Shown here piece after piece: positions 2,881 to 53,216 of a stretch of 64,000 bases of DNA. Location: assembly GCA_032718475.1 (NCBI GenBank), contig JAUCBJ010002979.1, forward strand, positions 1,566 to 65,565. Reading direction: 5' to 3'. Under the pieces are notes generated by a model. That model made no database searches. It had not been told where the DNA came from and was given only the letters and a program-made list of their open reading frames with translations. Every line of letters begins with the position of its first letter. Within the stretch, counting starts at the first letter, position 1. This DNA comes from Nemertoderma westbladi. Taxonomy: Eukaryota; Animalia; Xenacoelomorpha. The translations under genes and the position numbers were made by a program.

Positions 2881-3048
2881 ATTTAAAGTTAACAATCGAG
2901 AGATGCGATTATACGATATCGGAGAACCGGAAAATCGTGTCTCATTGGGAAGAGTTCCGGGAAATCGGACAACATCAGCACAACAATCAGATCAAGCTAC
3001 TGGAGAAAGAATTGGAAGATATGAAGGAAACATTTGATGAGATGACAC
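2881..3048 (+). CDS. CCDC83: CCDC83-like exon 2
   Basis: ttgcag| acceptor, |gttagt donor, phase 1/1. Encodes DLKLTIE...HWEEFREIGQHQHNNQIKLLEKELEDMKETFDEMT (human [24 protein letters not shown]). Confidence 0.85.
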
Positions 3049-8927: not shown

Positions 8928-9060
8928 GAACTTTCTACTCACACAAATGGACGATGCATTCACCGAAGATCCAGGGTTGTTAGAGAAAGATTTATCTGCT
9001 ATTGATTTTGACGTAACCAGAAAGGATACGGCCTACAGGGGGGCTGTGGGAGGCATCGAG
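8928..9060 (+). CDS. CCDC83: CCDC83-like exon 5 (its last ~41 nt are the first unit of the 50-bp array)
   Basis: tttcag| acceptor, GAG|gtaggt donor. Encodes NFLLTQMDD...RKDTAYRGAVGGIE. Phase 0 fits the exon at 25478. Confidence 0.75.
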
Positions 9061-15000: not shown

Positions 15001-15936
15001 ACGGCCTACAGGGGGCTGTGGGAGGCATCGAGGTAGGCTGGGAAAGGATACGGCCTACAGGGGGCTGTGGGAGGCATCGAGGTAGGTCGAGAAAGGATAC
15101 GGACTACAGGGGGGCTGTGGGAGGTATCGAGGTAGGTGGGGAAAGGATACGGCCTACAGGGGGCTGTGGGAGGCACCGAGGTAGGTCGTGAAAGGATACG
15201 GACTACAGGGGGGCTGTGGGAGGCATCGAGGTAGGTGGAGAAAGGATACGGCCTACAGGGGGCTGTGGGAGGCATCGAGGTAGGTCGGGAAAGGATGCGG
15301 CCTACAGGGGGCTGTGGAAGGCATCGAGGTAGGTCGTGAAAGGATACGGCCTACAGGGGGCTGTGGGAAGCATCGAGGTAGGTGGGGAAAGGATACGGCC
15401 TACAGGGGGGCTGTGGGAGGCATCGAGGTAGGTCGGGAAAGGATACGACCTACAGGGGGCCTGTGGGAGGCATCGAGGTAGGTCGGGAAAGGATGCGGCC
15501 TACAGGGGGCTGTGGAAGGCATCGAGGTAGGTCGGGAAAGGATACGGCCTACAGGGGCTGTGGGAGGCATCGAGGTAGGTGGGGAAAGGATACGGCCTAC
15601 AGGGGGCTGTGGGAGGCATCGAGGTAGGCCGGGAAAGGATACGGCCTACAGGGGGCTGTGGGAGGCATCGAGGTAGGCCGGGAAAGGATACGGCCTACAG
15701 GGGGCTGTGGGAGGCATCGAGGTAGGTGGGGAAAGGATACGGCCTACAGGGGGGCTGTGGGAGGCATCGAGGTAGGCCGGGAAACGATACGGCCTACAGG
15801 GGGCTGTGGGAGGCATCGAGGTAGGTCGGGAAAGGATGCGGCCTACAGGGGGCTGTGGGAGGCATCGAGGTAGGTGGGGAAAGGATACGGTCTACAGAGG
15901 GCTGTGGGAGGCATCGAGGTAGGTCGGGAAAGGATA
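9020..15936 (+). repeat. 49-50-bp G-rich minisatellite (~140 copies) built from the exon 5/intron junction, with a 1611-bp higher-order repeat
   Basis: Unit GAAAGGATACGGCCTACAGGGGGGCTGTGGGAGGCATCGAG|GTAGGTCGG. Near-identical ORFs recur at 9612/11223/12834. Confidence 0.95.
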
Positions 15937-16235: not shown

Positions 16236-18801
16236 TTATATTAAATACCATTAATTAATTAATACAATTTATATTAAATACCATTAATTAATTAATACAA
16301 TTTATATTAAATACCATTAATTAATTAATACAATTTATATTAAATACCATTAATTAATTAATTCAATTTATATTAAATACCATTAATTAATTAATACAAT
16401 TTATATTAAATACCATTAATTAATTAATACAATTTATATTAAATACCATTAATTAATTAATACAATTTATATTAAATAGCATTAATTAATTAATACAATT
16501 TATATTAAATAGCATTAATTAATTAATTCAATTTATATTAAATACCATTAATTAATTAATACAATTTATATTAAATACCATTAATTAATTAATACAATTT
16601 ATATTAAATACCATTAATTAATTAATACAATTTATATTAAATACCATTAATTAATTAATACAATTTATATTAAATACCATTAATTAATTAATACAATTTA
16701 TATTAAATAGCATTAATTAATTAATTCAATTTATATTAAATACCATTAATTAATTAATACAATTTATATTAAATACCATTAATTAATTAATACAATTTAT
16801 ATTAAATACCATTAATTAATTAATTCAATTTATATTAAATACCATTAATTAATTAATACAATTTATATTAAATACCATTAATTAATTAATACAATTTATA
16901 TTAAATACCATTAATTAATTAATACAATTTATATTAAATAGCATTAATTAATTAATTCAATTTATATTAAATACCATTAATTAATTAATACAATTTATAT
17001 TAAATACCATTAATTAATTAATACAATTTATATTAAATACCATTAATTAATTAATTCAATTTATATTAAATACCATTAATTAATTAATACAATTTATATT
17101 AAATACCATTAATTAATTAATACAATTTATATTAAATACCATTAATTAATTAATACAATTTATATTAAATAGCATTAATTAATTAATTCAATTTATATTA
17201 AATACCATTAATTAATTAATACAATTTATATTAAATACCATTAATTAATTAATACAATTTATATTAAATAGCATTAATTAATTAATACAATTTATATTAA
17301 ATAGCATTAATTAATTAATACAATTTATATTAAATACCATTAATTAATTAATACAATTTATATTAAATAGCATTAATTAATTAATTCGATTTATATTAAA
17401 TACCATTAATTAATTAATACAATTTATATTAAATACCATTAATTAATTAATTCAATTTATATTAAATACCATTAATTAATTAATACAATTTATATTAAAT
17501 ACCATTAATTAATTAATACAATTTATATTAAATAGCATTAATTAATTAATACAATTTATATTAAATAGCATTAATTAATTAATTCAATTTATATTAAATA
17601 CCATTAATTAATTAATACAATTTATATTAAATACCATTAATTAATTAATACAATTTATATTAAATACCATTAATTAATTAATACAATTTATATTAAATAG
17701 CATTAATTAATTAATACAATTTATATTAAATACCATTAATTAATTAATACAATTTATATTAAATACCATTAATTAATTAATACAATTTATATTAAATAGC
17801 ATTAATTAATTAATACAATTTATATTAAATACCATTAATTAATTAATACAATTTATATTAAATACCATTAATTAATTAATACAATTTATATTAAATACCA
17901 TTAATTAATTAATACAATTTATATTAAATACCATTAATTAATTAATACAATTTATATTAAATACCATTAATTAATTAATACAATTTATATTAAATACCAT
18001 TAATTAATTAATACAATTTATATTAAATAGCATTAATTAATTAATACAATTTATATTAAATACCATTAATTAATTAATACAATTTATATTAAATACCATT
18101 AATTAATTAATACAATTTATATTAAATAGCATTAATTAATTAATACAATTTATATTAAATACCATTAATTAATTAATACAATTTATATTAAATACCATTA
18201 ATTAATTAATACAATTTATATTAAATACCATTAATTAATTAATACAATTTATATTAAATACCATTAATTAATTAATACAATTTATATTAAATAGCATTAA
18301 TTAATTAATACAATTTATATTAAATACCATTAATTAATTAATACAATTTATATTAAATAGCATTAATTAATTAATACAATTTATATTAAATACCATTAAT
18401 TAATTAATACAATTTATATTAAATACCATTAATTAATTAATACAATTTATATTAAATACCATTAATTAATTAATACAATTTATATTAAATAGCATTAATT
18501 AATTAATACAATTTATATTAAATAGCATTAATTAATTAATTCAATTTATATTAAATACCATTAATTAATTAATACAATTTATATTAAATACCATTAATTA
18601 ATTAATACAATTTATATTAAATACCATTAATTAATTAATACAATTTATATTAAATAGCATTAATTAATTAATACAATTTATATTAAATACCATTAATTAA
18701 TTAATACAATTTATATTAAATACCATTAATTAATTAATACAATTTATATTAAATACCATTAATTAATTAATACAATTTATATTAAATACCATTAATTAAT
18801 T
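16236..18801. repeat. 33-bp very AT-rich satellite (~78 copies)
   Basis: Unit TTTATATTAAATACCATTAATTAATTAATACAA with ACC/AGC and TAC/TTC variants. Confidence 0.95.
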
Positions 18802-19634
18802 GAATAATTTAGTCATGGATTTCCATGATTACAAGCCATATCAGCAAATATTCCAGAACATTTTTAAACAAACTGGTGGGTAGGCCATGCTGGTACCACC
18901 GGCCACATATCGGCCACATGTATCATTTACAACGCCTTTGTTTTTACCTTGCGTAGGCCTGCTGCCGTTATGTATTTATTCGTGTTTAATTTCCCATATA
19001 TTATTCTACTTATTCCTCGCCATGAATTCATCTTTGGGCACAAGTAAAGCAAAATGGTCCCTACTTCGCCCTGTCTACACCACCTGCCATTTTTTTCACC
19101 AATCCTTTTTTAGTGTTTTTTTTTATGCTTTTTTGGTAGTGGTCAATGTTCTAGAAAATTAGTATATATGTTTTTTTTATGGTAGCTAGTGTTTTTTTAC
19201 TAGCTAGTATTTATTGAAATTATAAAAAATGCGACGTTGCTATTTTAGGTTTAAACTACAACAGGTTAACCAACAGTTTACAGTTTATATTCGTTTTTTT
19301 TAATTTTCAAAAAAATACAAGCTACCATTAAAAAAATATCTACGAATTTTCTAGAACATTCACCAATACCAAAAAAAACCTTAAAAAACACTAATAAATT
19401 TATTTGTAATATTAATATATTATTATATTATAATATATTGTAATAAATTAAACTAATTTTGGGACTCTTTTATTTGACAAGTGCCCATCTTTGGCTTATA
19501 ACATATCAGGCAAATGACATCCCTGCCATTTATAAAACTCGTTATGTTATTGATTAACGTTCAACACTGTTAATTATCTAATTAATTAATTACCATAATA
19601 CTAGCTAGTTAAACGATTCTTGGGCAAAGTTGCT

Positions 19635-21155: not shown

Positions 21156-22367
21156 GTTACCAAAAAATGTTCTAGAACAAAATAAAACTTGTTCTAGATC
21201 ATTACACAAACACTGAAAGGTAACAGCTTGATACTGAAAGGTATCATCAATAGATTGAAAGGTAACAAGTTTTTACATTTTGGTATAAAATTAAAATTGG
21301 GGACGGGCTGATCTCTATCCTAATTTTTATGGTGTATCGGTAGCCAATATTTTATTTTTAGCTAGTTGTAAAAAAAATTTAATATATAATACATCAGAAT
21401 TTATAAAATTAAAAATAATTTTGTAAATGTTTTAGAGTTATAGTTATAGAACAAAATTTAATTATTAAATATATATAAAAAATCTAAAATGTCGTAAAAC
21501 ATTTTAAAATAATAACTAACAGAAACTATATTTTAAAATATAGTTTTTATTGTTCGAGAACAACATTTATTTCTTCTATGAATAGATATTATGTTCTAGA
21601 ACATTTTCAAAGAACCTAGTAACAAAAACAAGCAACTACATTAGTATACAAATTTGGAGAGGTGTGTACAAAAAATCACAGTAGTGCCTTCATAGCAAAG
21701 CAATAATTACATTAAAAACACTCATAAAAATAGACAAATACCTACCAAAATTAAATTTTTTTGTTCTTCAAAAACACTAGGAAGCTACCGGCACCAATTA
21801 AAAATTACCAGATGCATAATAGTTGATGTCCTAATATACATACAGTAGTATCAAAAGTATACAAAAAGGTCTGGGTAATTAATATTTTGAGTAATACTGA
21901 AAACTATTCCCAAAAGTAATTATTCCAATAATTATTTTTATAATAAAGATAAATATCGACCATATTCTAGAACATTTTAAAATAAGTATCAAAATATAGT
22001 AAGCATAAAATATTATTAGGATTATTGTTCAGAGATTTGTCAATGCCTACAGTATTTCAGTGTAAGCCTACGCGTACTGAGAGTGTAAGCTTATGTGTGT
22101 ACTGACTGAGAGTGAACCTTTTTTATTACGTTACTAAATCTTCAATTATTGGGTGATTATAGTGCCTGTTAAACAACATTACAACGCGTTTATAGTATTT
22201 GTGGGTCATCTACTGGTACTGGAAGAATATTATAAATATTAATAATAATAGAGACGCATTTTTTAAAACTTTCAATTAACTTCACGTCGCAAAAGCGACC
22301 GTAACGAGAGCAACAATAACTAAAGACCGAACGGGTTTGAATAGAACGTATCTATTGTAGTAGAAAC

Positions 22368-23720
22368 ATGGAGAAAAATGAGAATCGTAATAAACATACG
22401 AGACGAAGGAAAAAACCTCAACGCGACAAACGGAAGGAATACCACTTCGAAGACGTAGTGAAACTCATCGTACCGATAACCATATCAATGACATTGTCTA
22501 TCTTAATTTCTAAGATAGTCAACACAGCTGCCGATAGTACATTGTTCGGCGGCAATAAATCCCGTCCTACCAAAGTCACTGGTACAGATTCTGATCCGAC
22601 CGAACCCAACGACCTCCCCATGTGGGTCTCGATCGCAGCTTGTGTCGGCGTAATTGTCATTGTGAGTCTAGTGACATTCTTTATTGTCTGTCTATATGCA
22701 TGGGGTTGCTTGAAAACTCTAAAGGGAATTATAGGTTTAGAAGTGGCATTATTGCTCACATACCTTCTCATGTTCACTGCTCGCGAAGTTCTGTACAATT
22801 TGGGTTTGCCATTTGATTACATCACCTACGCGATAATTAGTTGGAATTTCACTGTCGTTGGATTAACTTCGATGTACTATGTAAGTCCGCTACTGCTCCA
22901 ACAATTCTACCTTATTTGTATCAGCGCGTTCCTCAGCAATTCTCTCGTATTCATTCTACTGTTGTGGTTTGGGTATCTCCTAATTATTTTCATTTTCCTT
23001 GGGGCTTTCTGTGTCTACGATATGGCATCAGTATTAATTCCGATGGGTCCGCTGAATCTTTTAGTTCGGGTGATGGAAGGCAACGTTCTGCGAGACGCCC
23101 CCTTCCGGCCGCTTATATACTCGACCGTTGCGACTGTTTATCTTCCATCCAAAACGGAACCGTGTCAGATTCCCGTTGCCAATAAACTCACGTCGCCCAG
23201 GACATCCAAGGCGGACCTACTCCGAGTAAGAAGCGTTCCACTAGTCAATAATAAAAGAAAATCCAAAACGGAATTGGGAAGTCAAGTTCAGTTTGTTGTA
23301 GGAATAAAATCTAATGAGAGTAAAGTGACGATTGGAAATAAAGTCGTTGAGAAGGAAGAAAACACCATTGGTGTGTTGGACAGAGAATTGCCTTTTACGA
23401 ATTTAACAGAATCGGAAAAGTTTAGGTCAAGTTTAACAGAAGGAGGAGATGGTCCGAGGTTGGGACTCGGCGACTTTATATTTTACAACATTCTTATGAT
23501 TTTGGCTGCCGCGAACGAGTCTGCTATTACTACAGTGTTTGCCTGCTATCTCTCTATCATTGTTGGATTGCTCGGCACTCTTTTCTTACTTCTGCTCACA
23601 AAGAAGGCCCTACCAGCTCTTCCGCTCTCCTTGGCTATTGGCATGTTCATATACTTTCTATCTGTTTACTGTGTCGCTCCATTTATTTCTACACTCTCTT
23701 ACAACTTCATTTTTATATAA
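22368..23720 (+). CDS. Intronless divergent presenilin-family (peptidase A22A, GxGD aspartyl protease), 450 aa, nested in CCDC83 intron 5
   Basis: Single ORF with many hydrophobic segments. Has TM6 YD (FCVYDMASVLIPMGPL), TM7 LGLGDFIFY, C-terminal ALPALPLS and WNFTVVG/PLLLQQFYLI motifs. AATAAA at 23761. Confidence 0.9.
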   Translation: MEKNENRNKHTRRRKKPQRDKRKEYHFEDVVKLIVPITISMTLSILISKIVNTAADSTLFGGNKSRPTKVTGTDSDPTEPNDLPMWVSIAACVGVIVIVSLVTFFIVCLYAWGCLKTLKGIIGLEVALLLTYLLMFTAREVLYNLGLPFDYITYAIISWNFTVVGLTSMYYVSPLLLQQFYLICISAFLSNSLVFILLLWFGYLLIIFIFLGAFCVYDMASVLIPMGPLNLLVRVMEGNVLRDAPFRPLIYSTVATVYLPSKTEPCQIPVANKLTSPRTSKADLLRVRSVPLVNNKRKSKTELGSQVQFVVGIKSNESKVTIGNKVVEKEENTIGVLDRELPFTNLTESEKFRSSLTEGGDGPRLGLGDFIFYNILMILAAANESAITTVFACYLSIIVGLLGTLFLLLLTKKALPALPLSLAIGMFIYFLSVYCVAPFISTLSYNFIFI

Positions 23721-25628: not shown

Positions 25629-25783
25629 GTAAAATATTTGTTGATTATTTACATCTATTGATTGATTGATTGATAAATTTAAACTACTGTACAATAACAT
25701 CCACGGTTGTGATTTAATTGTTTTGAATATTTTGAATATTTTTTACTGCGGCCGCCATCAACAGGAATTTTTGTGTGTTTCAG

Positions 25784-26046
25784 ATGATTTCAGCAGCAGG
25801 GATGAGGACCTTTCTCGGGTTGCTATAGGAACTAAAGGAGATGGTGTATCTGAAGAGAGTCTATCTCTCAGACAACCTGACTCAGCTATCACTTACCATC
25901 CAGGCCATCCGAAACTTAGTTCCCGTTCACAAGGAATACTGAGTACTTTGGCGTCGGACGACCCCCTATATAAACGGGCCGTAGAAATATTCGAACGCGG
26001 GTCTCTCTTAGACAATTATTTCGTATTCGAGGACGATGATTTCGAT
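25784..26046 (+). CDS. CCDC83: CCDC83-like exon 7
   Basis: tttcag| acceptor, |gtaagt donor. Ends LLDNYFVFEDDDFD (human YLLYEDEKDFKD). Confidence 0.8.
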
Positions 26047-30218: not shown

Positions 30219-32391
30219 TATGGCATACTTTTAGTATTTTTATTCGACATTTTATTTCCCCTTGATATTCTTCTGAATTTAGTCGCGAGATAAATGATTA
30301 AACTCGCGAGAAAATTATCAAACTCGCGAGAAAATTATTATTCTCACGAGAAAATCATTAAACTCGCGAGAAAAATGATTAAACTCGCGAACAAATAATT
30401 AATCTCGCGAGGTAAATGATTAAACTCGCGAGAAAATAATTAAACTCGCGAGAAAATAATTAATCTCGCGAGATAAATGATTAAACTCGCGAGAAAATGA
30501 TTAAACTCGCGAGATAAATGATTAAACTCGCGAGAAAATAATTAATCTCGCGAGATAAATGATTAAACTCGCGAGAAAATAATTAAACTCTCGAGAATAT
30601 AATTAATCTCGCGAGATAAATGATTAAACTCGCGAGATAAATGATTAAACTCGCGAGAAAATTATCAAACTCGCGAGAAAATTATTATTCTCACGAGAAA
30701 ATCATTAAACTCGCGAGGAGAAAATGATTAAACTCGCGAACAAATAATTAATCTCGCGAGGTAAATGATTAAACTCGCGAGAAAAATACACATCTCACGA
30801 AAAAAGTCGCGATTGGCTGTTAATTGGGACAGTAGGAAACGGCCATCCAATAGCAGCAGAGGAAATACCCTTACACGTGCAATAGGGATATATATAATAG
30901 ATATTAAATAGGCCTTCTTTCTATATCATTCATTTCAGCATACCGTAACATTATCTCTGCCTCCTGTCTGTATTAAGGGGCATCGTGTCGAGTTTAGGGA
31001 AGCATGTTTGTTTATACAAGCCAGAGTTGCAATATTGTATTTGTACTTTGGTACAATAGCCATTTGGGCTGCCTGGCGCGCGGCGCTGCGCGGTGCGGCG
31101 GTCCCTATTCTGGACTGAATTTTTGTTTAGCAGTAGTCAGATGCATGATTTCTACTTAATGTGATTCTTTTAAATTCAATAAAAATTAATAATTCAACAA
31201 ACCATTAAATTGATGCACTATATTAAGTGGTGATACAGTTTATTATTAGCGCCCATGGGCCCATGTGAAGAATACCAGGATTTCACTTTTCGGACGACCT
31301 TTTATTGGAATTTTATATAAAGATTGTTATTTTTTTTTATTTATCTTTATTAAATGTTTTATAGCGTTTATTTCTGTCTTATAACCTGTACATACATATA
31401 CTATTTCGTTTATTGTTTTGGTTAAATTCAGCCCTTCTGTAACCTGTGTTTTTGGTTAAAACCTGGTATTCTTCACATGGGGGTAACTGCAAAGTGAAAT
31501 ATAGCGGCAGAAAGTCTGGTATTCTTCATATGGGCCATTATTAGTATTATGCTGTTGATACGTTGGCTGAATTGGGCCAAATAAAAGTCGCCTCTAAAAG
31601 TCGCGTTACGGCTAATTGTCGCGTTACAGCTAAATTTTTGAGAGATTAGCCATAACGCGACTTTCAAAGTCGCGGTACGGCTACTCAAAATGTTGCGTTA
31701 TGGCTAATCTATTGTCTTGGTTTTATAAAGGGAATCATTATCAATATTATTCTATGGTGTTTACGTACATATGAGGTCCGAAAAATGTAATGTAATAATG
31801 TTTTACAGCGTGGGAGTATCTGGGGGGGGGGGGGGGGATTAATCATTTATCTCGCGAGATTATTTAATTTCTCGCGAGTTTAATCATTTATCTCGCGAGA
31901 TTAATTAATTTCTCGCGAGTTTAATCATTTATCTCACGAGATTCTTTAATTTCTCGCGAGTTTAATCATTTATCTCGCGAGATTAATTAATTTCTCGCGA
32001 GTTTAATAATTTATCTCGCGAGATTAATTATTTTCTCGCGAGTTTAATCATTTATCTCGCGAGTTTAATCTTTTATCTTGCGAGATTAATTATTTTCTCG
32101 CGAGTTTAATTATTTTCTCGCGAGATTAATTATTTTCTCGCGAGTTTAATCATTTATCTCGCGAAATTAATTATTTTTTCACGAGTTTAATCATTTATCT
32201 CGCGAGATTTATAATTGTCTCGCGAGTTTAATCATTTTTCTCGCGATTTTAATGATTTTCTCGTGAGAATAATAATTTTCTCGCGAGTTTGATAATTTTC
32301 TCGCGAGTTTAATCATTTATCTCGCGACTAAATTCAGAAGAATATCAAGGGGAATTAAAATGTTGAATGAAAATACTAAAAGTATGCCATA
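30219..32391. mobile_element. Non-autonomous foldback DNA transposon, IS3EU-like (TATGG...CCATA termini, 6-bp TSD AAACGT), with subterminal ~20-bp CTCGCGAG tandem arrays
   Basis: AAACGT|TATGGCATACTTTTAGTATTTT...AAAATACTAAAAGTATGCCATA|AAACGT. Arrays at ~30284-30800 and 31838-32327 are mutually inverted. Confidence 0.85.
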
Positions 32392-36258: not shown

Positions 36259-37161
36259 GCATATATGTTTTTTTATTTATTCAAATTCCAATATAATAAG
36301 GAGTTGGGGTGTGAGGGTTACGGGTAGATTACATTAGCATATAATCAGCATTTGTAACGCGAAATTAAATACCCACAGCTACACTTTGTCAGCTGAACAA
36401 CATTTCACTACTTATTGTCAATTGGAGTTACACATTAGTTATATCGTTAATTATTGTTCTATCTCTATTCAGTCAGTTAGTGTAACAAACAGTACATCAT
36501 TTATATATCGTATGTATCTACAGTATAGGGCCTATTGTCATCGTTATAAGACTGTCATCAACTCAGGCTCTAAGCTCAATTATAATGTAAATGCTTAGTA
36601 GGTTTTGTATATCTGGGACGTTTACAACAGCTGTCGATTAAACTAACAAAACCAGAAAACTGAACCAGGGTGCCAACCGGGTACCAACAGTTGTTATAGG
36701 TAGACTTAATGGAACATTTCACAAACTTTCATAGGAGGCTTCACCCTTGTACGTACATGTACATTATATTGGTTGCTCCGATGTTTTTATTAGGCTAACT
36801 GATAATGTATTAGGTATAAATAATTCGTGTCCTTTATTTTATTTATCTAATACAGAAAGACCCCTCCGCAGAACAATCTGCTCTTTTGGGCCGTTTTTCC
36901 CAGATTGCGGATATTTCATACATCGCAATAATTGTGATTATTTTTTGTTTGCCTAGGCAAGTCATTCTTGGTTTGCATCTTCCAATCCCATCTGTTTGTT
37001 GGAGTCTGTGTAAGACAGGTTCGTTTCAAGCCATCTTGATGGCGTTTTAGTCAAATATTAAAAATATAATAACGAGTTAGAACAAATTTATAGTACAACA
37101 TAACTGGAGTTGGAAACTAAACCTATTATAATTAAGATCAATGATAATACTCTTTACTTAC

Positions 37162-38648
37162 ATTCTGAAACTTTTGTAACAACTCAGAATTGCGATGTGG
37201 CATAGACATTGTCCTGGAGAGACGGCAACTCTCAATATCATCGTCTGGGTTCTCTGCGGTATCAACGTAACTAGACAGTTTACTGGAATATTTGGAGGAT
37301 TCTAAAGAAGCTATAGCTCGTATTCGTTGCAATCTCAATTCTTTACTTTCTGTCGATGTCGATGTTGTTAATTCCATTGCTGTCTTCCTAGGAGTTCTCT
37401 TTAATGTAAGGTTTTGCCATTCGGATGGTTTTCTTTCCACCGGCGGTTGTTCTATCTGTCGTTTGTCCGATACTGTCCGTTTTAGTTTCATATTCTTAAA
37501 TTCGGGTTCAAACTTTGTTATCGAAGGCGAGGTGATTGTCGTTCGATCCAGTGATTCGCGCCTTTTTAATGGTAAATCAACAAACTCTGGTTTATCACTG
37601 ATTGCTGTAGAATGTGTTTCGTTTGTTTCCTTGGGGACAGGTTTGAGTTCACTCAATCCGGGAATGACTACGGTGGGATTCTCTTCAATAATGGAGAGAG
37701 GTCGAGGCGGAATCGCTCGGGTTTCGCGTAAATGCACCTGAAATATTTCGCTCGCGTTCGTAACTTCTTCTGGATCACCCGAACCGACTAGTTTCGTTGG
37801 TTTCAACGCGGTTACATCAAACGGCAACTTTACATCGGTTAGGTCGCAGGTCTTTGGCCTTTCCCTTCGCGGTTTCAACCTCATGGTCCGGAATGTCGGT
37901 TCCTCTTTAGTTGAAATTTGAGTTTTACTTTCGAGTTTTCGAATAGTCCCCATAAGTGCAACTGCGTTGTTTTCCTCAATGTTATCCCCTGTGTGTTCAT
38001 CATGGATAACATCGTCCTCATTTGCTTCCGTTAATGTTGTTCTCAATTTGACCTTTGTAACAGCAATCTGAGGGTGAATCTTGTTTTGTTTTCGTTGTCG
38101 TTCTAATTTCATTAACGCGTCGTATCTGCGAAACGAAATATCCTGTTCATTGTTGACCACCCGAGGTGCGTTATCTGAGATATTCGGCTTCTGTGGAGTT
38201 TTCTTTAGATTAACATTACATAGTTCTGAGTCAGATTCCTCGGTAATGCTTCCTCTAGGGGAAGTAATTCGTGCTTCCCTTAACCTTAATTCCGAGAATG
38301 CCGGGACATTCCTTTGAGAGGACGATAGTTTTTGGTTCGATTTCTCGAGTTGGGAAATGGCTTCCATGTATTGGGTGCTGTAATCCGTCTTACCGATGAC
38401 ACCCGATCTACCGGAGGTCTGCCGTTTTTCTTTCTCCGATAATTGGTAGGTTTTGGCGGCTTTTAGGAACTGCTGGGTGTGTTCTGTTTCGCGTTCGATA
38501 CCGGATCGTGTTTCCCGAGAATGTGTTCCCATTTCATGTTCGCGTTCTTTCTCTAATCGGGTTATAGCTTCCATGAAGGTCGTCGAATATGGTGTGGCGT
38601 TAATAACTGTAGATTCATCAGCCGTTGATAATTTATTTGCTGTTGCAC
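37162..38648 (-). CDS. Uncharacterised protein, large exon 6 (contains the 478-aa ORF)
   Basis: ttttag| acceptor in frame with ORF 37138-38574. AAT|gtaagt donor at 37161. About 1.5 kb stop-free and non-repetitive. Confidence 0.8.
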
Positions 38649-39733: not shown

Positions 39734-39927
39734 CATATTCATCACTGGAAGCTTCGCTACTAAGACCACTGTCACTAGATGGCAGCATCTTCTGGAGTTT
39801 CATCAATCTCTTCGATTTCTCATTCGGTTTATCGCCATCTCCGTAACCCCCCGATGGATCGTAAGGCTCTATGTATTCCAGATTATCTTGGCTAACATCC
39901 AACTGCTTTTTAAGCATTTGCATTGAT
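39734..39927 (-). CDS. Uncharacterised protein, exon 5
   Basis: tttttag| acceptor, |gttggt donor. Encodes SMQMLKKQLDV...SSEASSDEY, phase 2/1. Confidence 0.7.
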
Positions 39928-40291: not shown

Positions 40292-40427
40292 CTGGTTGTT
40301 AAGGCCGGATCAACAAAATCATCGCCTCTTATTGACATCACTATAGTATCGTCAGCATCATCCTCGTAAGTTTCGGTAGATTCGTCATTTACAAATGTAT
40401 CATCGTCGTCTTCTGGCCCAATCATTC
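40292..40427 (-). CDS. Uncharacterised protein, exon 4
   Basis: aaacag| acceptor, AG|gtatta donor. Encodes (R)MIGPEDDDDTFVNDE...DPALTT, phase 1/2. Confidence 0.7.
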
Positions 40428-40761
40428 CTGTTTATTATTATAATAATGAAATTCGAGAGTTCAGGATATTAATATTATAACAGTTACTAAGTACTTGTCG
40501 GGCCTACCATATATTAACTACTACTAACTGTTCTGGTTCTATTTTATATGTTAAACTGTTTTCGATCAACGGGTCTCTGTTTCCAAGCTACAGTACCATT
40601 AATAATAGCAGCGTTGCGGTAGGAATGTTGCTTACAGTTAACATCATCAGTTTTGTTGCTACAGTAGTTAATTACACTTACGCACAGGGAAGGCTTATGA
40701 AATGCTTTGACAAGTTCATTACACTTAATTAAGTAGATCATATTAAATGCTTTATACAGTT

Positions 40762-43700
40762 AGAGTCTATTAAATACTTTTGTCTTTAGTAATTCAACTG
40801 ACTTACGGGAGAGTCTATTAAATACTTTTGTCTTTAGTAATTCAACTGACTTTGGGAGATTCTATGAAACACTTTGTTGTTGGTCAATTCCGTTAGTAAT
40901 TCAACTGACTTACGGGAGAGTCTATTAAATACTTTTGTCTTTAGTAATTCAACTGACTTACGGGAGAGTCTATGAAACACTTTGTTGTTGGTCAATTCCG
41001 TTAGTAATTCAACTGACTTACGGGAGAGTCTATTAAATACTTTTGTCTTTAGTAATTCAACTGACTTACGGGAGAGTCTATGAAACGCTTTGTTGTTGGT
41101 CAATTCCGTTAGTAATTCAACTGACTTACGGGAGAGTCTATGAAACGCTTTGTTGTTGGTCAATTCCGTTAGTAATTCAACTGACTTACGGGGGAGTCTA
41201 TTAAATACTTTTGTCTTTAGTAATTCAACTGACTTACGGGAGAGTCTATGAAACGCTTTGTTGTTGGTCAATTCCGTTAGTAATTCAACTGACTTACGGG
41301 GGAGTCTATTAAATACTTTTGTCTTTAGTAATTCAACTGACTTACGGGAGAGTCTATTAAACGCTTTGTTGTTGGTGAATTCCGTTAGTAATTCAACTGA
41401 CTTACAGGAGAGTCTATTAAATACTTTTGTCTTTAGTAATTCAACTGACTTACGGGAGAGTCTATTAAACGCTTCGTTGTTGGTCAATTACGTTAGTAAT
41501 TCAACTGACTTACGGGAGAGTCTATGAAACGCTTTGTTGTTGGTCAATTCCGTTAGTAATTCAACTGACTTACGGGGGAGTCTATTAAATACTTTTGTCT
41601 TTAGTAATTCAACTGACTTACGGGAGAGTCTATGAAACGCTTTGTTGTTGGTCAATTCCGTTAGTAATTCAACTGACTTACGGGGGAGTCTATTAAATAC
41701 TTTTGTCTTTAGTAATTCAACTGACTTACGGGAGAGTCTATGAAACGCTTTGTTGTTGGTCAATTCCGTTAGTAATTCAACTGACTTACGGGGGAGTCTA
41801 TTAAATACTTTTGTCTTTAGTAATTCAACTGACTTACGGGAGAGTCTATGAAACGCTTTGCTGTTGGTCAATTCCGTTAGTAATTCAACTGACTTACGGG
41901 GGAGTCTATTAAATACTTTTGTCTTTAGTAATTCAACTGACTTACGGGAGAGTCTATGAAACGCTTTGTTGTTGGTCAATTCCGTTAGTAATTCAACTGA
42001 TTTACGGGAGAGTCTATTAAATACTTTTGTCTTTAGTAATTCAACTGACTTTGGGAGAGTCTATGAAACGCTTTGTTGTTGGTCAATTCCGTTAGTAATT
42101 CAACTGACTTACGGGGGAGTCTATTAAATACTTTTGTCTTTAGTAATTCAACTGACTTACGGGAGAGTCTATGAAACGCTTTGTTGTTGGTCAATTCCGT
42201 TAGTAATTCAACTGACTTACGGGGGAGTCTATTAAATACTTTTGTCTTTAGTAATTCAACTGACTTACGGGAGAGTCTATGAAACGCTTTGTTGTTGGTC
42301 AATTCCGTTAGTAATTCAACTGACTTACGGGAGAGTCTATTAAATACTTTTGTCTTTACTAATTCAACTGACTTCGGGAGAGTCTATGAAACGCTTTGTT
42401 GTTGGTCAATTCCGTTAGTAATTCAACTGACTTACGGGAGAGTCTATGAAACGCTTCGTTGTTGGTCAATTCCATTAGTAATTCAACTGACTTACGGGAG
42501 AGTCTATTAAATACTTTCGTCTTTAGTAATTTAACTGACTTACGGGAGAGTCTATTAAATACTTTTGTCTTTAGTAATTTAACTGACTTACGGGAGAGTC
42601 TATGAAACGCTTTGTTGTTGGTCAATTCCGTTAGTAATTCAACTGACTTACGGGAGAGTCTATTAAATACTTTCGTCTTTAGTAATTCAACTGACTTACG
42701 GGAGAGTCTATTAAATACTTTTGTCTTTAGTAATTCAACTGATTTACGGGAGAGTCTATTAAATACTTTTGTCTTTAGTAATTCAACTGATTTACGGGAG
42801 AGTCTATTAAATACTTTTGTCTTTAGTAATTCAACTGACTTACGGGAGAGTCTATTAAACGCTTTGTTGTTGGTCAATTCCGTTAGTAATTCAACTGACT
42901 TACGGGGGAATCTATTAAATACTTTTGTCTTTAGTAATTCAACTGACTTACGGGAGAGTCTATGAAACGCTTTGTTGTTGGTCAATTCCGTTAGTAATTC
43001 AACTGACTTACGGGAGAGTCTATTAAATACTTTCGTCTTTAGTAATTCAACTGACTTACGGGAGAGTCTATTAAATACTTTCGTCTTTAGTAATTCAACT
43101 GACTTACGGGAGAGTCTATTAAATACTTTTGTCTTTAGTAATTCAACTGACTTACGGGAGAGTCTATTAAACGCTTTGTTGTTGGTCAATTCCGTTAGTA
43201 ATTCAACTGACTTACGGGGGAATCTATTAAATACTTTTGTCTTTAGTAATTCAACTGACTTACGGGAGAGTCTATTAAACGCTTTGTTGTTGGTCAATTC
43301 CGTTAGTAATTCAACTGACTTACGGGGGAATCTATTAAATACTTTTGTCTTTAGTAATTCAACTGACTTACGGGAGAGTCTATTAAACGCTTTGTTGTTG
43401 GTCAATTCCGTTAGTAATTCAACTGACTTACGGGGGAATCTATTAAATACTTTTGTCTTTAGTAATTCAACTGACTTACGGGAGAGTCTATTAAACGCTT
43501 TGTTGTTGGTCAATTCCGTTAGTAATTCAACTGATTTACGGGAGAGTCTATTAAATACTTTTGTCTTTAGTAATTCAACTGACTTACGGGAGAGTCTATT
43601 AAACGCTTTGTTGTTGGTCAATTCCGTTAGTAATTCAACTGACTTACGGGGGAATCTATTAAATACTTTTGTCTTTAGTAATTCAACTGACTTACGGGGA

Positions 43701-44259
43701 TTCTATTAAACGCTTTGTTGTTGGTCAATTCCGTTAGTAATTCAACTGACTTACGGGGGAATCTATTAAATACTTTTGTCTTTAGTAATTCAACTGACTT
43801 ACGGGAGAGTCTATTAAACGCTTTGTTGTTGGTCAATTCCGTTAGTAATTCAACTGACTTACAGGAGAGTCTATTAAATACTTTTGTCTTTAGTAATTCA
43901 ACTGACTTACGGGAGAGTCTATGAAACGCTTTGTTGTTGGTCAATTCCGTTAGTAATTCAACTGACTTACGGGAGAGTCTATTAAATACTTTCGTCTTTA
44001 GTAATTCAACTGACTTACGGGAGAGTCTATTAAATACTTTTGTCTTTAGTAATTCAACTGACTTACGGGAGAGTCTATTAAACGCTTTGTTGTTGGTCAA
44101 TTCCGTTAGTAATTCAACTGACTTACGGGGGAATCTATTAAATACTTTTGTCTTTAGTAATTCAACTGACTTACGGGAGAGTCTATGAAACGCTTTGTTG
44201 TTGGTCAATTCCGTTAGTAATTCAACTGACTTACGGGGGAGTCTATGAAACGCTTTGTT

Positions 44260-44298
<39 letters not shown>

Positions 44299-46829
44299 AT
44301 AGCCGTATATTTATTATTAAAGCTTGTAAAAACAGCTGATGCACATCAGATCGCATAGCAACCACCACCAACTACCAGACAAATATACACTGTTAAATTA
44401 ATACTACAGTTAGTATATGATACTGTCTGACTGTCCTCCAAACTTGGAGGGTTGTTATCCACAGTCGCCTACGCCGGGTTGCAGTCGGCATTGCTGTGGA
44501 TGATCGACTCCACGTCGCACCGAACCGGACGCCGCTTAGCTGATCGACAGCCGCGAAGGCACAGGAGGGCTGACCGCAAAAGGGCGAAACTCAACCTCCT
44601 GCGAACCCACACAACACACTCTGAATAGCGGACCTCGCGTTTGTCAGCCAGTTTCAACGCGAGACGCTTGATAAACTGTGTGGCTGACGGTGAAGCTCCA
44701 CCAAACGCAGAGAATATAAGGGGAGTGAAGCTGGCGTGCTCCACCTCCCTCAACCGCTCTTCGTATTTGAGCCTCTTGCGAGACTTATGGTGTAGGTGGG
44801 ATGCCGGAAGGGACATCGCGGCGTTGGTGTCCGCCAGCGGGTTGAAGACAGACACGTCGATGAACGTTTTCCGGAAACGGTTTCCCCAGAATCCGCTCAC
44901 CGACACATCCAGCCTCGCCTGCTGGTCCGTCGATGTCGACCGATGGCTGAACGTCTCGCCCGATAGTGGCTGCAGAAGCGGTTCCACCCCGACATTGTTT
45001 GAAACGCTTTGTTGTTGGTCAATTCCGTTAGTAATTCAACTGACTTACGGGAGAGTCTATTAAATACTTTTGTCTTTAGTAATTCAACTGACTTACGGGA
45101 GAGTCCATAAAACGCTTCGTTGTTGGTCAATTCCGTTAGTAATTCAACTGACTTACGGGAGAGTCTATTAAATACTTTTGTCTTTAGTAATTCAACTGAC
45201 TTACGGGAGAGTCTATGAAACGCTTTGTTGTTGGTCAATTCCGTTAGTAATTCAACTGACTTACGGGAGAGTCTATGAAACGCTTTGTTGTTGGTCAATT
45301 CCGTTAGTAATTCAACTGACTTACGGGAGAGTCTATGAAACGCTTTGTTGTTGGTCAATTCCGTTAGTAATTCAACTGACTTACGGGAGAGTCTATTAAA
45401 TACTTTTGTCTTTAGTAATTCAACTGACTTACGGGAGAGTCTATGAAACGCTTTGTTGTTGGTCAATTCCGTTAGTAATTCAACTGACTTACGGGAGAGT
45501 CTATTAAATACTTTTGTCTTTAGTAATTCAACTGACTTACGGGAGAGTCCATAAAACGCTTCGTTGTTGGTCAATTCCGTTAGTAATTCAACTGACTTAC
45601 GGGAGAGTCTATGAAACGCTTTGTTGTTGGTCAATTCCATTAGTAATTCAACTGACTTACGGGAGAGTCTATTAAATACTTTTGTCTTTAGTAATTCAAC
45701 TGACTTACGGGAGAGTCCATGAAACGCTTCGTTGTTGGTCAATTCCGTTAGTAATTCAACTGATTTACGGGAGAGTCTATTAAATACTTTTGTCTTTAGT
45801 AATTCAACTGACTTACGGGGAGTCCATGAAACGCTTCGTTGTTGGTCAATTCCGTTAGTAATTCAACTGACTTACGGGAGAGTCTATGAAACGCTTCGTT
45901 GTTGGTCAATTCCGTTAGTAATTCAACTGATTTACGGGAGAGTCTATTAAATACTTTTGTCTTTAGTAATTCAACTGACTTACGGGAGAGTCTATGAAAC
46001 GCTTCGTTGTTGGTCAATTCCGTTAGTAATTCAACTGATTTACGGGAGAGTCTATTAAATACTTTTGTCTTTAGTAATTCAACTGACTTACGGGAGAGTC
46101 TATGAAACGCTTTGTTGTTGGTCAATTCCGTTAGTAATTCAACTGACTTACGGGATAGTCTATTAAATACTTTTGTCTTTAGTAATTCAACTGACTTACG
46201 GGAGAGTCTATGAAACGCTTTGTTGTTGGTCAATTCCGTTAGTAATTCAACTGACTTACGGGATAGTCTATTAAATACTTTTGTCTTTAGTAATTCAACT
46301 GACTTACGGGAGAGTCTATGAAACGCTTTGTTGTTGGTCAATTTCGTTAGTAATTCAACTGACTTACGGGATAGTCTATTAAATACTTTCGTCTTTAGTA
46401 ATTCAACTGACTTACGGGAGAGTCTATGAAACGCTTTGTTGTTGGTCAATTCCGTTAGTAATTCAACTGACTTACGGGATAGTCTATTAAATACTTTTGT
46501 CTTTAGTAATTCAACTGACTTACGGGAGAGTCTATGAAACGCTTTGTTGTTGGTCAATTTCGTTAGTAATTCAACTGACTTACGGGATAGTCTATTAAAT
46601 ACTTTCGTCTTTAGTAATTCAACTGACTTACGGGAGAGTCTATGAAACGCTTTGTTGTTGGTCAATTCCGTTAGTAATTCAACTGATTTACGGGAGAGTC
46701 TATTAAATACTTTTGTCTTTAGTAATTCAACTGACTTACGGGAGAGTCTATTAAATACTTTTGTCTTTAGTAATTCAACTGACTTACGGGAGAGTCTATG
46801 AAACGCTTTGTTGTTGGTCAATTCCGTTA
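40762..46829 (-). repeat. Composite 60/48-bp minisatellite (~100 units) built from the exon 3/intron junction of the minus-strand gene
   Basis: Minus-strand units CGGAATTGACCAACAACAAAGCGTTTCATAGACTCTCCC|GTAAGTCAGTTGAATTACTAA (60 bp) and AGACAAAAGTATTTAATAGACTCTCCC|GTAAGTCAGTTGAATTACTAA (48 bp). Confidence 0.95.
44261..44999 (-). mobile_element. 5'-truncated CRE-like non-LTR retrotransposon with restriction-like endonuclease (RLE) C-terminus, poly(A) tail and ~15-bp TSD
   Basis: ORF 44469-44987 has ARLDVSVSGFWG...FIDVSVFNP...KRLKY...FTPLIFSAFGG, an RLE-type motif set. T-run at 44261-44293 is the poly(A). TGAAACGCTTTGTTG is duplicated at 44246-44260 and 45000-45014. Confidence 0.85.
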
Positions 46830-46889
46830 CATTTTCTTCTTCACTTAGACGTCGTAACTCCATTTTCTTCTGTGTTTTACGAATTTCCG
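46788..46889 (-). CDS. Uncharacterised protein, exon 3 (3' part is the founder unit of the 60/48-bp array)
   Basis: tcaacag| acceptor, CTCCC|gtaagt donor. Encodes AEIRKTQKKMELRRLSEEENVTELTNNKAFHRLS, phase 1/1. Confidence 0.72.
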
Positions 46890-46948
46890 CTGTTGAAATA
46901 TTTTCGGAATTTATAATAAAATTGTTGGTATTGGAAATATAGTAATGT

Positions 46949-47159
46949 GGAAGCAGGACAATTCGGTCCCGGACAATTCGGTCCTAGGACAATTCGGTCC
47001 TAGGACAATTCGGTCCCGGACAATTCGGTCCCGGACAATTCGGTCCCATTTATTTAGTGTTTTGGGACCGAATTGTCCGGGACCGAATTGTCCGGGACCG
47101 AATTGTCCGGACCGAATTGTCCGGGACCGAATTGTCCGGGACCGAATTGTCCTACATCC
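46949..47159. mobile_element. MULE-type palindromic MITE built of 15-bp units, 9-bp TSD TAGTAATGT
   Basis: GGAAGCAGGACAATT...AATTGTCCTACATCC. (GGACAATTCGGTCCY)x6 is followed by 6 inverted copies. TSD at 46940-46948 and 47160-47168. Confidence 0.85.
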
Positions 47160-47300: not shown

Positions 47301-47464
47301 CTAGATTCACCATTGGTTGTTTAGATGTGTCTTTAACTATCCTGTGTATCAATCTCAACCTCTTCATTGACTCACTAACATGATGTTCGTCCTCTTTCAT
47401 TCTATCGTCGTCGTTATCACCATCACTCTTGTCGTTAACGGATTGACGATATCGAAGACTATCA
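47301..47464 (-). CDS. Uncharacterised protein, exon 2
   Basis: ctgcag| acceptor, |gttagt donor. Open frame DSLRYRQSVNDKSDGDNDDDRMKEDE...QPMVNL. Confidence 0.7.
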
Positions 47465-47734
47465 CTGCAGAATTCAAGTAAATAAATTAATTTGTATTAT
47501 CTCTATTTATTGTAATATTAACAGATAGGCTTACCCAAAGAAAGGTTACCTGTTAAACATTTCATATGAAGAACCGTGGTATATTGAATTGCATTCTTAT
47601 TATAACCACTTAATTTCTTTGATTTGTTTACGAGATTGGGGGATATTAAAAAAGCTGTTCATAATCCTATTTAAATAATTATTAAAAGTTAGTGTGAGTG
47701 ATAGTTGTGTGAGTGGTACTTTTGTGTGTTGTAG

Positions 47735-48114: not shown

Positions 48115-48188
48115 TTGACCCTGGCGGGGCTGAACCTACAACCATTAGATCGCAGGCCCGGCGCTCAACCAACTGAGCTACCTCGCCA
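48115..48188 (-). pseudogene. tRNA-like (SINE-head) sequence
   Basis: GGTAGCTCAGTTGGTTGAGCG (A box) and GGTTCAGCCCC (B box-like). The acceptor stem does not pair. Confidence 0.5.
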
Positions 48189-48331
48189 TTAACCTGAAAA
48201 ATATGATATGGTAAATAAAAATTTCCCTGTCTCAGGAATTAGACTATCCTTCTATACTTCACTTTGTATAGTACTTACTGGGTATAGTGGTCCCGGTCCG
48301 GTACTACGTAGGCCTACAGTACTACACAGAC

Positions 48332-49741: not shown

Positions 49742-50736
49742 TTCTACCAACCTACAGTACCAACCAACCGACCTACCAAGATACCGACCTAACAACATGC
49801 CAACCTACCGACTTACCAACCTACCAACAGGCCGACATCCAACCTTCCATCCTACCAACCTACAGTACCAACCAACCGACCTTCCATCCTACCAACCTAC
49901 AGTACCAACCTACCGACCGAGCTACCAATCTTACAACATACCGACCTACCAACATACCGACCTACCAATATACCGACCTGCCAACCTACCGATCTACCAA
50001 CATACCGTCCTACCAACAAAGTGACCTAACAACATACCGACCTACCAATATACCGACCTGCCAACCTACCGATCTACCAACATAGCGAACTACCAACATA
50101 GTGACCTACCAACATACCGATCTACCAACCAAGCAACATACCGACCTATAAACCGGCCAACCTGCCGACCTACCAACCTACCGACTTACCAACCCACCGA
50201 CCTACCCACTTACCAACCTACCGACCTATAAACCTGCCAGCCTACCGACTTACCAACCTACCGACAGACCAACCTACCGACGTACCAACCTACAGACCTA
50301 CCAACCAATCAACCTACCGACCTATAAACCTACTAACCTTCCGACTTACCAACCTACCGACTTACCAACCAATTAACCTACCGACCTATCAACCTTCCAA
50401 CCCACCGACTTACCAACCTACCGACCTATAAACCTGCCAGCCTACCGACTTACCAACCTACCGACTTACCAACCCACAGACCTAACAACCAATCAACCTA
50501 CCGACCTATAAACCTGCCAACCTACCGACTTGCCAACCTACCGATCTGCCCACTTACCAACCTACCAACCTATAAACCTGCCAACCTACCGACTTACCAA
50601 CCTACCGACCTATCGACTCACCAACCTACAGACCTACCAACCAATCAACCTACCGACCTATAAACCTGCCAACCTACCGACTTACCAACCTACCGAAATA
50701 TCAACCTATCGACTTGCCATCCTACCGACCTACCAA
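49742..50736. repeat. Degenerate 8-mer-based repeat (CCTACCAA/CCTACCGA/CTTACCAA)
   Basis: Strongly C/A-skewed tract of about 1 kb. Confidence 0.85.
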
Positions 50737-51615: not shown

Positions 51616-52470
51616 TTAAGAATGCTGTGCCGGCTTATCGACAAAATTGCGCCGCCACAACTCCCTATCACCCATGACATTTGCTAGATCATCCGCATTT
51701 TCAAGGCCAGTGTCCTTTAAGATGCGTCTTAAGAAAGTCATGGGCTGTCCACCATGCTTATTCACTCCATGAGGCTGCCAAAGTACAAGATTATGCACTG
51801 GCTGGTCCTCACGGCGAAAGCAATGTCCTGCAAAGCGGAGGCGATTTTGTTCTAGTGTCAAGCTTGGGAGAACCAATGAAACACCTCCAATGTTATATAG
51901 TGTCTGGTTGGAGATGAGTGCATTGTACTTGACACAATGAACCCGGCGTAGCATTCTTGTGAATGTGCCATCCAGAGATTTGGTGTCCTCAGCAGTTAGA
52001 GCCCAGCATGGAATCCCATAGAGGAGTACTGGAACTACTGCTGCTCTAAATAATCGGACCTTAAGTTTCCGATTAATTCTCGGTGACTTCCAAATCCTGG
52101 AAAGCCTATTCAAGGCTGCCCATGCCTTTCCCTTACGTATTCGAAGGTCCCTCACCTGACATCCGGATCCATGATCCCAGGTAACAGAAGTCATCCACAT
52201 GCTCAAGCATACCATCTTTTGAGCTTATGCTCATCCGATCAGAGACTTGCTGAGGACTTTCAAAGTTAACTGTCAAAATTTTGGTCTTTCTGGAGTTAAT
52301 AAAAAGACCAACGCTAGAAGCAGCATGTTCTAATGTGCTGAGGAGCCGTTGGGCTCCCTCTAGTGATTCTGAGAGTACTCCTAAGTCATCAGCAAAGTCT
52401 AGATCAGTTAGGTACTTGGCAGGATTTCCTCGACTTCTGGAGCCAGTAGGTGGAGTTATCATCACCCCAT
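51616..52470 (-). mobile_element. RTE-clade LINE fragment, reverse-transcriptase C-terminal half, frameshifted
   Basis: LTDLDFADDL (RT YADD motif), GLFINSRKTK and VDDFCYLGSWI, then a frameshift near 52140 into RIRKGKAWAALNRLSRIWKS...LLYG...RLRFAGHCFR. Confidence 0.85.
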
Positions 52471-53216
52471 CATCATTATGATGATCTAAGGACATGCGTA
52501 GAACAGATTGTACCAAAACATAAATGAAACACAAAAATTTATCAACCAACTTAGGGACTTTTATCCAACGTTTATCCCAACTCGTGTTGTCTCCTGCACA
52601 CGTACAGTACGTGGTGGAATTTGTCCTCTGATTAAAGAGCATCCATAAAATCCTTTTTTTCACATACCGAACGCTGATAAGTTGACATAATGTAACAAAA
52701 TTACATACATCTTTGAGTGCAAAGGTTAATTACTTTTCAGATTTATAAAAAACCTTGTTTACTTATGTAAACCTCGCACGCTGCTCTCGCTCGGTACATA
52801 AATACACTCCGGTCACAAGCACAACGCTGTAAAGTGCTACTTTGCACACAATGATGTAAATTGTTATTCGCCACTAATTGAATGCCACCCCAAATTAGGT
52901 GATTTAACACCAAAATAAATTATTTTCCACCAAATATATAATTTTTGTAGCATCAATTCACATCCCCCAATATTGAATATCCCTCTCACCAAAAACAATT
53001 ATCATCCCCCAATAACAATTATTCGCCCCCCAAAAACAATTATTGATTCCCCAAAAAACAATTATTCATCCCCCCAAAACAATTATTATTCCCCAAAAAA
53101 CAATTATTATACCCCCAAAAACAATTATTGATTCCCCAAAAACAATTATTCATCACCGAAAAATAATTACTTGTCAACCAAAAAAAATTATTCCAGCACC
53201 AAATATTTTATATTAA

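Follow-up and report, generated by a model that had tools for sequence, protein, structure and literature searches.

A tandem array in which a unit of 48 or 60 bp is repeated about 99 times was analysed on the minus strand of a 64,000-nt stretch of DNA from Nemertoderma westbladi (assembly GCA_032718475.1, contig JAUCBJ010002979.1, positions 1,566 to 65,565), the whole of which is called the window here. The array, at 40762-46829 in window coordinates, starts inside the third exon of a predicted six-exon gene and continues into intron 3, so that its units repeat the 5' splice site (donor) of that exon. It is a large and unusually tidy case of a boundary-spanning minisatellite, a kind already described and known in amphioxus under the name 'mirage', and the gene to which it belongs probably splices from the first donor only, or nearly only, the remaining copies being ignored.

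The predicted gene and its array

The gene model consists of six successive minus-strand segments with AG/GT boundaries, the phase being kept over five junctions (Table 1). It was built on phase consistency, splice motifs and the long open reading frame (ORF) of the last segment, and the splice sites were picked with the frames already known. In the non-array DNA of the window a stretch of 36 codons is stop-free in a fraction of only 0.128 of cases, so that a frame of 507 aa is not expected by chance. Exon 3 contains a purine-rich run, GAAGAAGAAAA, that ends 44 nt upstream of the first donor. Intron 3, when the array and an insert within it are taken out, is about 350 nt long and similar to the neighbouring introns of 363 and 411 nt. 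Judged by these motifs and frames, the exons of the model are quite likely to be real.

Table 1. Features of the window discussed in the text (a slash marks a predicted splice boundary).
Feature	Position	Strand	Remarks
Predicted exon 1, coding end (ATG TTT AAC AG / gtaacc)	47550..47560	-	gives the 2 nt that the phase of exon 2 needs
Predicted exon 2, 164 nt; acceptor ctgcag/T, donor CTAG/gttagt	47301..47464	-	open; phase matches exon 3
Predicted exon 3, 102 nt	46788..46889	-	last 40 nt match the exon-derived part of the unit
First, presumed authentic 5' splice site CCC/GTAAGT	46782..46787	-	sequence motif
Proximal array block	45001..46829	-	contains the 18 in-frame donors, with last exon bases from 46788 to 45876
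First 59-bp frameshift unit	~45869-45811	-	within the proximal block
5'-truncated LINE-like retroelement fragment, 739 nt	44261..44999	-	in the orientation of the gene; poly(A) and target duplication
Distal array block	40762..44260	-	another four 59-bp units; one unit with TAA
Predicted exon 4, 136 nt; acceptor aaacag/GA, donor CCAG/gtatta	40292..40427	-	
Predicted exon 5, 194 nt; acceptor ttttag/A, donor TATG/gttggt	39734..39927	-	phase fits exons 4 and 6
Predicted exon 6, 507-aa open frame without tandem repeat	37141..38648	-	strongest sign of a real minus-strand gene here
Array (a), 33-bp unit, ~107 copies	TRF rows from 3110, unit-like copies from ~3030, to 6662	+	GTTAGT, 109 times
Array (b), GC-rich (0.61), 50-bp unit, ~141 copies	9020-15936	+	GAG/GTAGGT in each unit, 123 times
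Array (c), 23-bp unit, ~112 copies carrying GGTGTAAGTAAG	to 28595	+	GTAAGT, 86 times
Fifth array, 16-bp unit	49758-50736	-	GGTAGGT/GGTAAGT-like motifs; 13 strict and 51 relaxed donor hexamers

It could be argued instead that 46788-46889 is not an exon, and that the array is an ordinary non-coding minisatellite in which GTAAGT is incidental. The homology searches would agree with this, since no homolog was found for the exon 2 peptide among longer proteins or for the exon 3 and array ORF (363 aa) among candidate proteins of 199-636 aa, the 507-aa ORF gave 0 hits against 1.84 billion representatives, and no Pfam family was recognized on that ORF or on other pieces of the gene model. The best ESM Atlas scores, 0.80 (P0001) and 0.87 (the array ORF), are both below the lead level of 0.9. 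Pfam matches to 11 families on the array ORF (Ribosomal_L5, DUF6154 and others) were rejected as artefacts of summing over repeats, with 0 stretches passing singly. ORFs of 60-80 codons are, moreover, not rare at such a composition, and the splice sites were not chosen blind to the frames. Against this stand the five successive junctions of exons 1-6 that are in phase at canonical AG/GT sites, the repeat-free 507-aa ORF downstream on the same strand, the appearance of GTRAGT in a shuffled unit only about 5% of the time, and the recurrence of the exon-edge position at three other arrays, all of which make a mistaken gene model quite improbable.

Tandem Repeats Finder (TRF) placed the array at 40762-46803 with periods of 48, 108 and 216. 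Anchoring on a 15-nt motif yielded 98 anchors and 97 intervals, so that the units follow one another head to tail with a single interruption; 49 of the intervals are 48 bp and 42 are 60 bp long, five are 59 bp (frameshifts), and one, of 814 bp, is a 60-bp unit with an insertion in it. The 48-bp type differs from the 60-bp one by the absence of 12 nt and by a few substitutions, and the two alternate in 71 of 96 neighbouring pairs, giving a 108-bp higher-order repeat. Exon 3 ends in 40 nt that match the corresponding stretch of the 60-bp consensus at every position (40/40), and the GTAAGT that follows completes the unit together with the next 14 nt, so that the exon contributes 40 nt and the intron 20. 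Since exon end, donor and these 14 nt equal one 60-bp unit, the array is, given the predicted exon, an amplified exon 3/intron 3 junction, with its first unit lying across the boundary and the splice signal repeated from unit to unit.

The repeated signal is well preserved. A 24-nt motif (CCC/GTAAGT and the next 15 nt) has 97 matches when up to three mismatches are allowed. They all fall on the minus strand, from 40786 to 46790, and 83 of them are exact by a hand count of the match table; there is none elsewhere in the window and there were 0 matches in 100 shuffles. Donor-like 9-mers number 95 (85 CCCGTAAGT, 8 CCCGTAAAT and 2 CCTGTAAGT), and the gene strand carries 87 intact copies of GTRAGT. 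Eight donor copies read GTAAAT, and the GT has been lost in three of the 59-bp units. The start of the array lies within exon 3, at about 46829; its distal edge (~40672-40761) is decayed unit-like sequence, as expected at array edges, and inside the array there are few variant types, shared in blocks, which is the pattern of concerted evolution with edges that escape homogenization. A metagenome scan with a 41-nt stretch of the unit gave 0 matches, Rfam at the gathering threshold 0 matches and ARAGORN 0 genes.

It is proposed that a 60-bp piece, in which the final 40 nt of exon 3 are followed by 20 nt of intron with the 5' splice signal, was amplified together with a 48-bp deletion variant until about 99 units filled the intron. 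Growth would have been by slippage or unequal exchange, with homogenization still going on, because the two unit lengths alternate in 71 of 96 pairs, variants are shared in blocks, and the proximal edge is perfect (40/40) whereas the distal one is decayed. The array itself is probably neutral or nearly so.

The insertion that splits the 814-bp interval lies within one 60-bp unit, contains an ORF that is open up to the 5' junction, and has a GC content of 0.51 against 0.36 for the array. It has the 3' poly(A) (33 nt), the target-site duplication (15 nt, CAACAAAGCGTTTCA, at 45000-45014 and 44246-44260) and the 5' truncation of an insertion of the type without long terminal repeats. Because of the poly(A) and the duplication it is assigned to 5'-truncated insertions like those of the long interspersed nuclear elements (LINE-like). 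No Pfam family, and hence no reverse-transcriptase or endonuclease domain, was found on its 188-aa ORF, which does not count against the class in a fragment that represents the 3' end only.

Reading frame through the array

The consensus 108-bp dimer has no stop in just one of its six frames, the one that carries on from exon 3; the others contain 3 and 7 stops on the gene strand and 1, 6 and 1 on the plus strand. The open frame at 45796-46983 reads ...TELTNNKAFHRLSRKSVELLKTKVFNRLSRKSVELL..., in agreement with the initial annotation, which had followed the ORF from exon 3 on through the array with the same peptide. That annotation had further described both unit types as multiples of three and free of stops. 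The lengths of 48 and 60 bp bear this out, while the absence of stops does not extend beyond the consensus, as one 60-bp unit carries TAA. Its statement that donors ahead of the first frameshift would join exon 4 in frame was borne out as well: 18 of the 95 donors, the authentic one and 17 beyond it, give a stop-free, in-phase junction with exon 4, at exon 3 lengths of 102-1014 nt. The array thus shares with arrays of the IFI6 (6-16) type, in which a reiterated donor leads to alternative splicing, a unit length divisible by three and a sequence open in the frame of the exon. Three of the 18 in-frame donors, including the third in order, are the weaker GTAAAT. The last base of exon 3 is corrected to 46788, the G of the GT being at 46787. 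The basophilic kinase-like site RLSRKS, which had been ascribed to the graded isoforms, is by manual reading half intron read-through, and the product of the first donor would read ...AFHRLSR and then MIGPEDDDD.

The frame is first broken by the 59-bp unit at about 45.85 kb, and the remaining 77 of the 95 donors, which lie behind it, run into stops. Over its whole length the array is not a coding variable-number tandem repeat (VNTR), since five of its 97 units are 59 bp long, one unit bears TAA, and the 739-nt retroelement interrupts it. Nor do the variants suggest constraint on the encoded peptide. Among the 42 long and 49 short full-length units (91 in all, the five 59-bp units and the interrupted unit being excluded) the variant types number 18; 15 of them are non-synonymous, including the one that creates the TAA, and 3 are synonymous, with 11, 3 and 4 falling at codon positions 1, 2 and 3, respectively. 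The excess of synonymous or third-position changes that purifying selection would produce in a coding VNTR was not found.

As two thirds of the unit copies coding sequence, only the intron-derived part of about 20 nt has to be open, and seven-codon stretches, which are of that size, are stop-free in 46990 of 72797 cases (0.645) in the non-array DNA of the window. A unit length has a one-in-three chance of being a multiple of three, and the two proportions together let chance alone produce an open, in-frame array in about one case out of five for a single unit type, which is not rare; such an array is rarer if the 12-nt deletion must be in frame too. The open reading frame is probably a by-product. 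The graded ladder of protein lengths suggested by the initial annotation is geometrically valid, but as a selected device it is on balance unlikely, in view of the lack of a synonymous excess, the frameshifts, the retroelement, the unreadable neighbouring arrays described below, and the chance expectation.

Donor choice and its precedents

In the proposed mechanism the first donor wins and the other ~94 copies would be silent decoys. With the upstream acceptor 102 nt away and the purine-rich, enhancer-like run 44 nt away, the first donor should be favoured, as would suit exon definition and the 5'-to-3' 'scanning' described for F7. A minor share of in-frame products longer by 48 or 96 nt may still be made, as in IFI6.

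Several precedents are found in the literature. In amphioxus the name 'mirages' is that used for Adh3, and tandem duplications at boundaries occur also in troponin C, globins and PGBD5; they are reported to duplicate splice sites without giving aberrant mRNAs, and the authors considered that they might be widespread in the genome as a general feature (PMC3087553, PMC3902484). The intron 3 array is like them in having a unit that straddles the junction of exon and intron and repeats the splice signal, and in combining homogenized units with decayed edges. It differs in size, with ~99 units over 6 kb compared to the 3-6 units of ~150 bp in the amphioxus globins BflGb6 and BflGb9, and in having two unit lengths that form a 108-bp higher-order repeat in frame with the exon.

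In human F7, the 37-bp VNTR of intron 7 (IVS7) likewise has its first unit over the exon-intron boundary, and the authentic donor is followed by identical pseudo-donors; this gene is the model for the rule that the most upstream site wins (PMC1557585). Splicing was measured in F7, whereas donor choice is predicted here. The F7 array has 5-9 copies, its site UGG/gugggu is weak, and its unit length is not divisible by three, in contrast to 95 copies of a site whose intron side, GTAAGT, is perfect, in units that keep the frame. The arrays of human LMNB2 (100-bp units, 10-15 copies) and PDGF intron 4 (81-bp units, 16-18 copies) have long, donor-reiterating units like those of the present array, although in fewer copies, and in these two genes and in F7 the authentic donor alone is described as used (PMC1557585). 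In human IFI6 and CBS, on the other hand, the authentic donor and two downstream copies are used; the minisatellite in intron 2 of IFI6 has 25 pseudo-sites, only the two nearest being used (PMC1557585), and the authentic donor and two repeat units give rise to three mRNA species with different isoforms (PMC4526556). IFI6 is similar in its donor-reiterating array and provides the precedent for an isoform ladder, the present array being known from sequence alone.

Such a ladder would arise if several of the 18 in-frame donors were used, giving isoforms that differ by modules of 16 or 20 aa, most likely as a short, IFI6-like series from donors 1-3 and not one of 18 steps. Units of 48 and 60 bp, an open exon frame with a single phase at 18 of 95 donors, donor copies of identical sequence, and the use of two downstream copies each in IFI6 and CBS all speak for it (PMC1557585 and PMC4526556). 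It is nevertheless unlikely, given that the module peptide bears no signature of selection, that the in-frame state is fairly frequent by chance and is seen in one of the four such arrays of the window, that the copies are silent in F7, LMNB2, PDGF and the amphioxus mirages, that the third donor is the weaker GTAAAT, and that no module-bearing protein was found among the candidates of 199-636 aa.

A number of observations weigh against exclusive use of the first donor, or against the neutrality of the array. All the donor copies share an identical local sequence (83 of 97 exact 24-mers), and nothing appears to mask the downstream ones: RNA structure was considered for that role and rejected, as the fold of 46560-46900 has a z of 0.07 and 47 of 100 shuffles fold as well. 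No indel disturbs the frame across the first 18 donors in succession, a run of 1014 nt, and three of the five variant types in these proximal units are synonymous when judged by eye, which is too few to exclude weak constraint. Both the exon model and the donor choice are, in addition, themselves predictions. Lastly, two strong consensus 5' sites placed in tandem are reported to splice in vitro almost wholly from the intron-proximal, downstream copy (PMC3413131). This rule is the opposite of that for F7, so that precedent leaves the winning copy unsettled.

If the donor nearest the acceptor won, exon 3 would extend over about 6 kb and, after crossing frameshifts and the retroelement, meet a premature stop. 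This would mean either a transcript that is degraded or a gene in decay. An internal exon of 6 kb conflicts with exon definition, and this counts against such a rule. In its favour are the in vitro behaviour of duplicated strong consensus sites (PMC3413131) and the position of the last intact copy, ~380 nt from the exon 4 acceptor. The downstream exons are still open and in phase, however, including the 507-aa ORF, and natural boundary-spanning arrays use the upstream donor, making this outcome very improbable.

It could also be speculated that the array is kept for its ~90 intronic U1-binding sites, which might boost the upstream donor or shield a long intron from premature cleavage. The 87 intact GTRAGT copies on the gene strand would fit, as would the donor-like motifs found on a consistent strand in four or five arrays of the window. 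The donor copies decay freely, however (eight are GTAAAT and three of the 59-bp units have lost the GT), and an origin at the exon edge explains the motif simply, so that a role of this sort seems very unlikely.

Use of the first donor remains the preferred reading, and two further arrangements considered alongside it were set aside. One was that the upstream 60 nt of exon 3 are an older, decayed unit, the exon having grown by loss of donors; the alignment score of 4.0 was close to the shuffle mean of 3.82, and 1049 of 2000 shuffles scored as high, as did 156 of 314 window controls. The other was that each 60-bp unit supplies an internal branch site and acceptor (TACTAAC followed by AG), which by eye lack the pyrimidine tract between them.

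With its 95 copies the locus offers a natural test of how the spliceosome chooses among identical 5' splice sites. The products of the first 18 donors would be in frame and would not be removed by nonsense-mediated decay, and they would discriminate between first-site choice, nearest-site choice and slippage.

Other donor-reiterating arrays and repeats in the window

Three further arrays, all on the plus strand, reiterate a donor at or near the edge of a predicted exon. Array (a) follows a predicted exon with a coiled-coil-like product (2882-3048) that ends in GACAC/GTTAGT at 3048, and each of its units carries CAC/GTTAGTAGG. The exon frame stops 2 nt past the donor, whereas other frames are open for 506 aa on both strands. 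Array (b) begins inside, or ~10 nt after, a predicted exon at 8928-9060 that contains an ATG (MDDAFTEDPG...), and is directly followed by an AT-rich 33-bp array at 16236-18806 (GC about 0.12). Array (c) starts ~20 nt past the donor TTCGAT/GTAAGT of a predicted exon at 25783-26046, its first unit being a decayed copy of the donor region. The fifth array is upstream of the gene with exons 1-6, and no adjoining exon was resolved for it. Shuffling the units of an array produced GTRAGT in 1-9% of trials, depending on the array; GTTAGT and GTAGGT were admitted as relaxed motifs once the arrays had been seen, and their counts are descriptive only.

The four arrays that reiterate a donor cover 19,166 of the 64,000 bases (30%), and tandem arrays in total 27,301. 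Because the exon frames of arrays (a), (b) and (c) stop 2, 99 and 27 nt past their first donors, this architecture clearly arises regardless of whether it can be read, the intron 3 array being the readable one in four, a proportion that fits chance. The amphioxus authors suspected a general habit of the genome, and here four such arrays are clustered in 64 kb, which supports the old suspicion that mirages are general in some invertebrate genomes. A stronger version would be a genome-wide habit of donor-reiterating minisatellites (four, perhaps five, in the window), through mutation linked to splice sites or as U1-binding platforms, combined with slippage among up to 18 identical in-frame donors to give a protein ladder of 16-20-aa modules that escapes nonsense-mediated decay; this combination is considered very unlikely. 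The long open frames through these arrays (up to 506 aa, on both strands) are not genes, and serve as a warning for annotation.

Other repeats and genes of the window were recorded. A 15-bp unit (GGACAATTCGGTCCC) makes up two adjoining arrays of opposite orientation (46955-47152; rows 46956-47047 and 47064-47152), which together form a long palindrome in intron 2, separate from the donor array. Two 20-bp arrays at 30283-30787 and 31839-32327 have reverse-complement units, lie ~1 kb apart, and resemble the array-type terminal inverted repeats of a mobile element. A retroelement remnant at 51619-52729 (minus strand) has a weak Pfam match to RVT_1 (E 5.7e-6, below the cut-off) and one to DUF6451. 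A tRNA-like stretch, GGTAGCTCAGTTGGTTGAGCG..., was noted by eye at ~48120-48195 (minus strand); ARAGORN and Rfam call no tRNA there, and it may be the head of a short interspersed nuclear element. Finally, an intronless 459-aa open frame at 22341-23717 (plus strand) matches Pfam Presenilin from end to end (E 2.1e-74), and shows 27-34% identity to its best full-length hits, which are spread across very different phyla; at this level of identity it is a divergent, and possibly retrocopied, presenilin paralogue.

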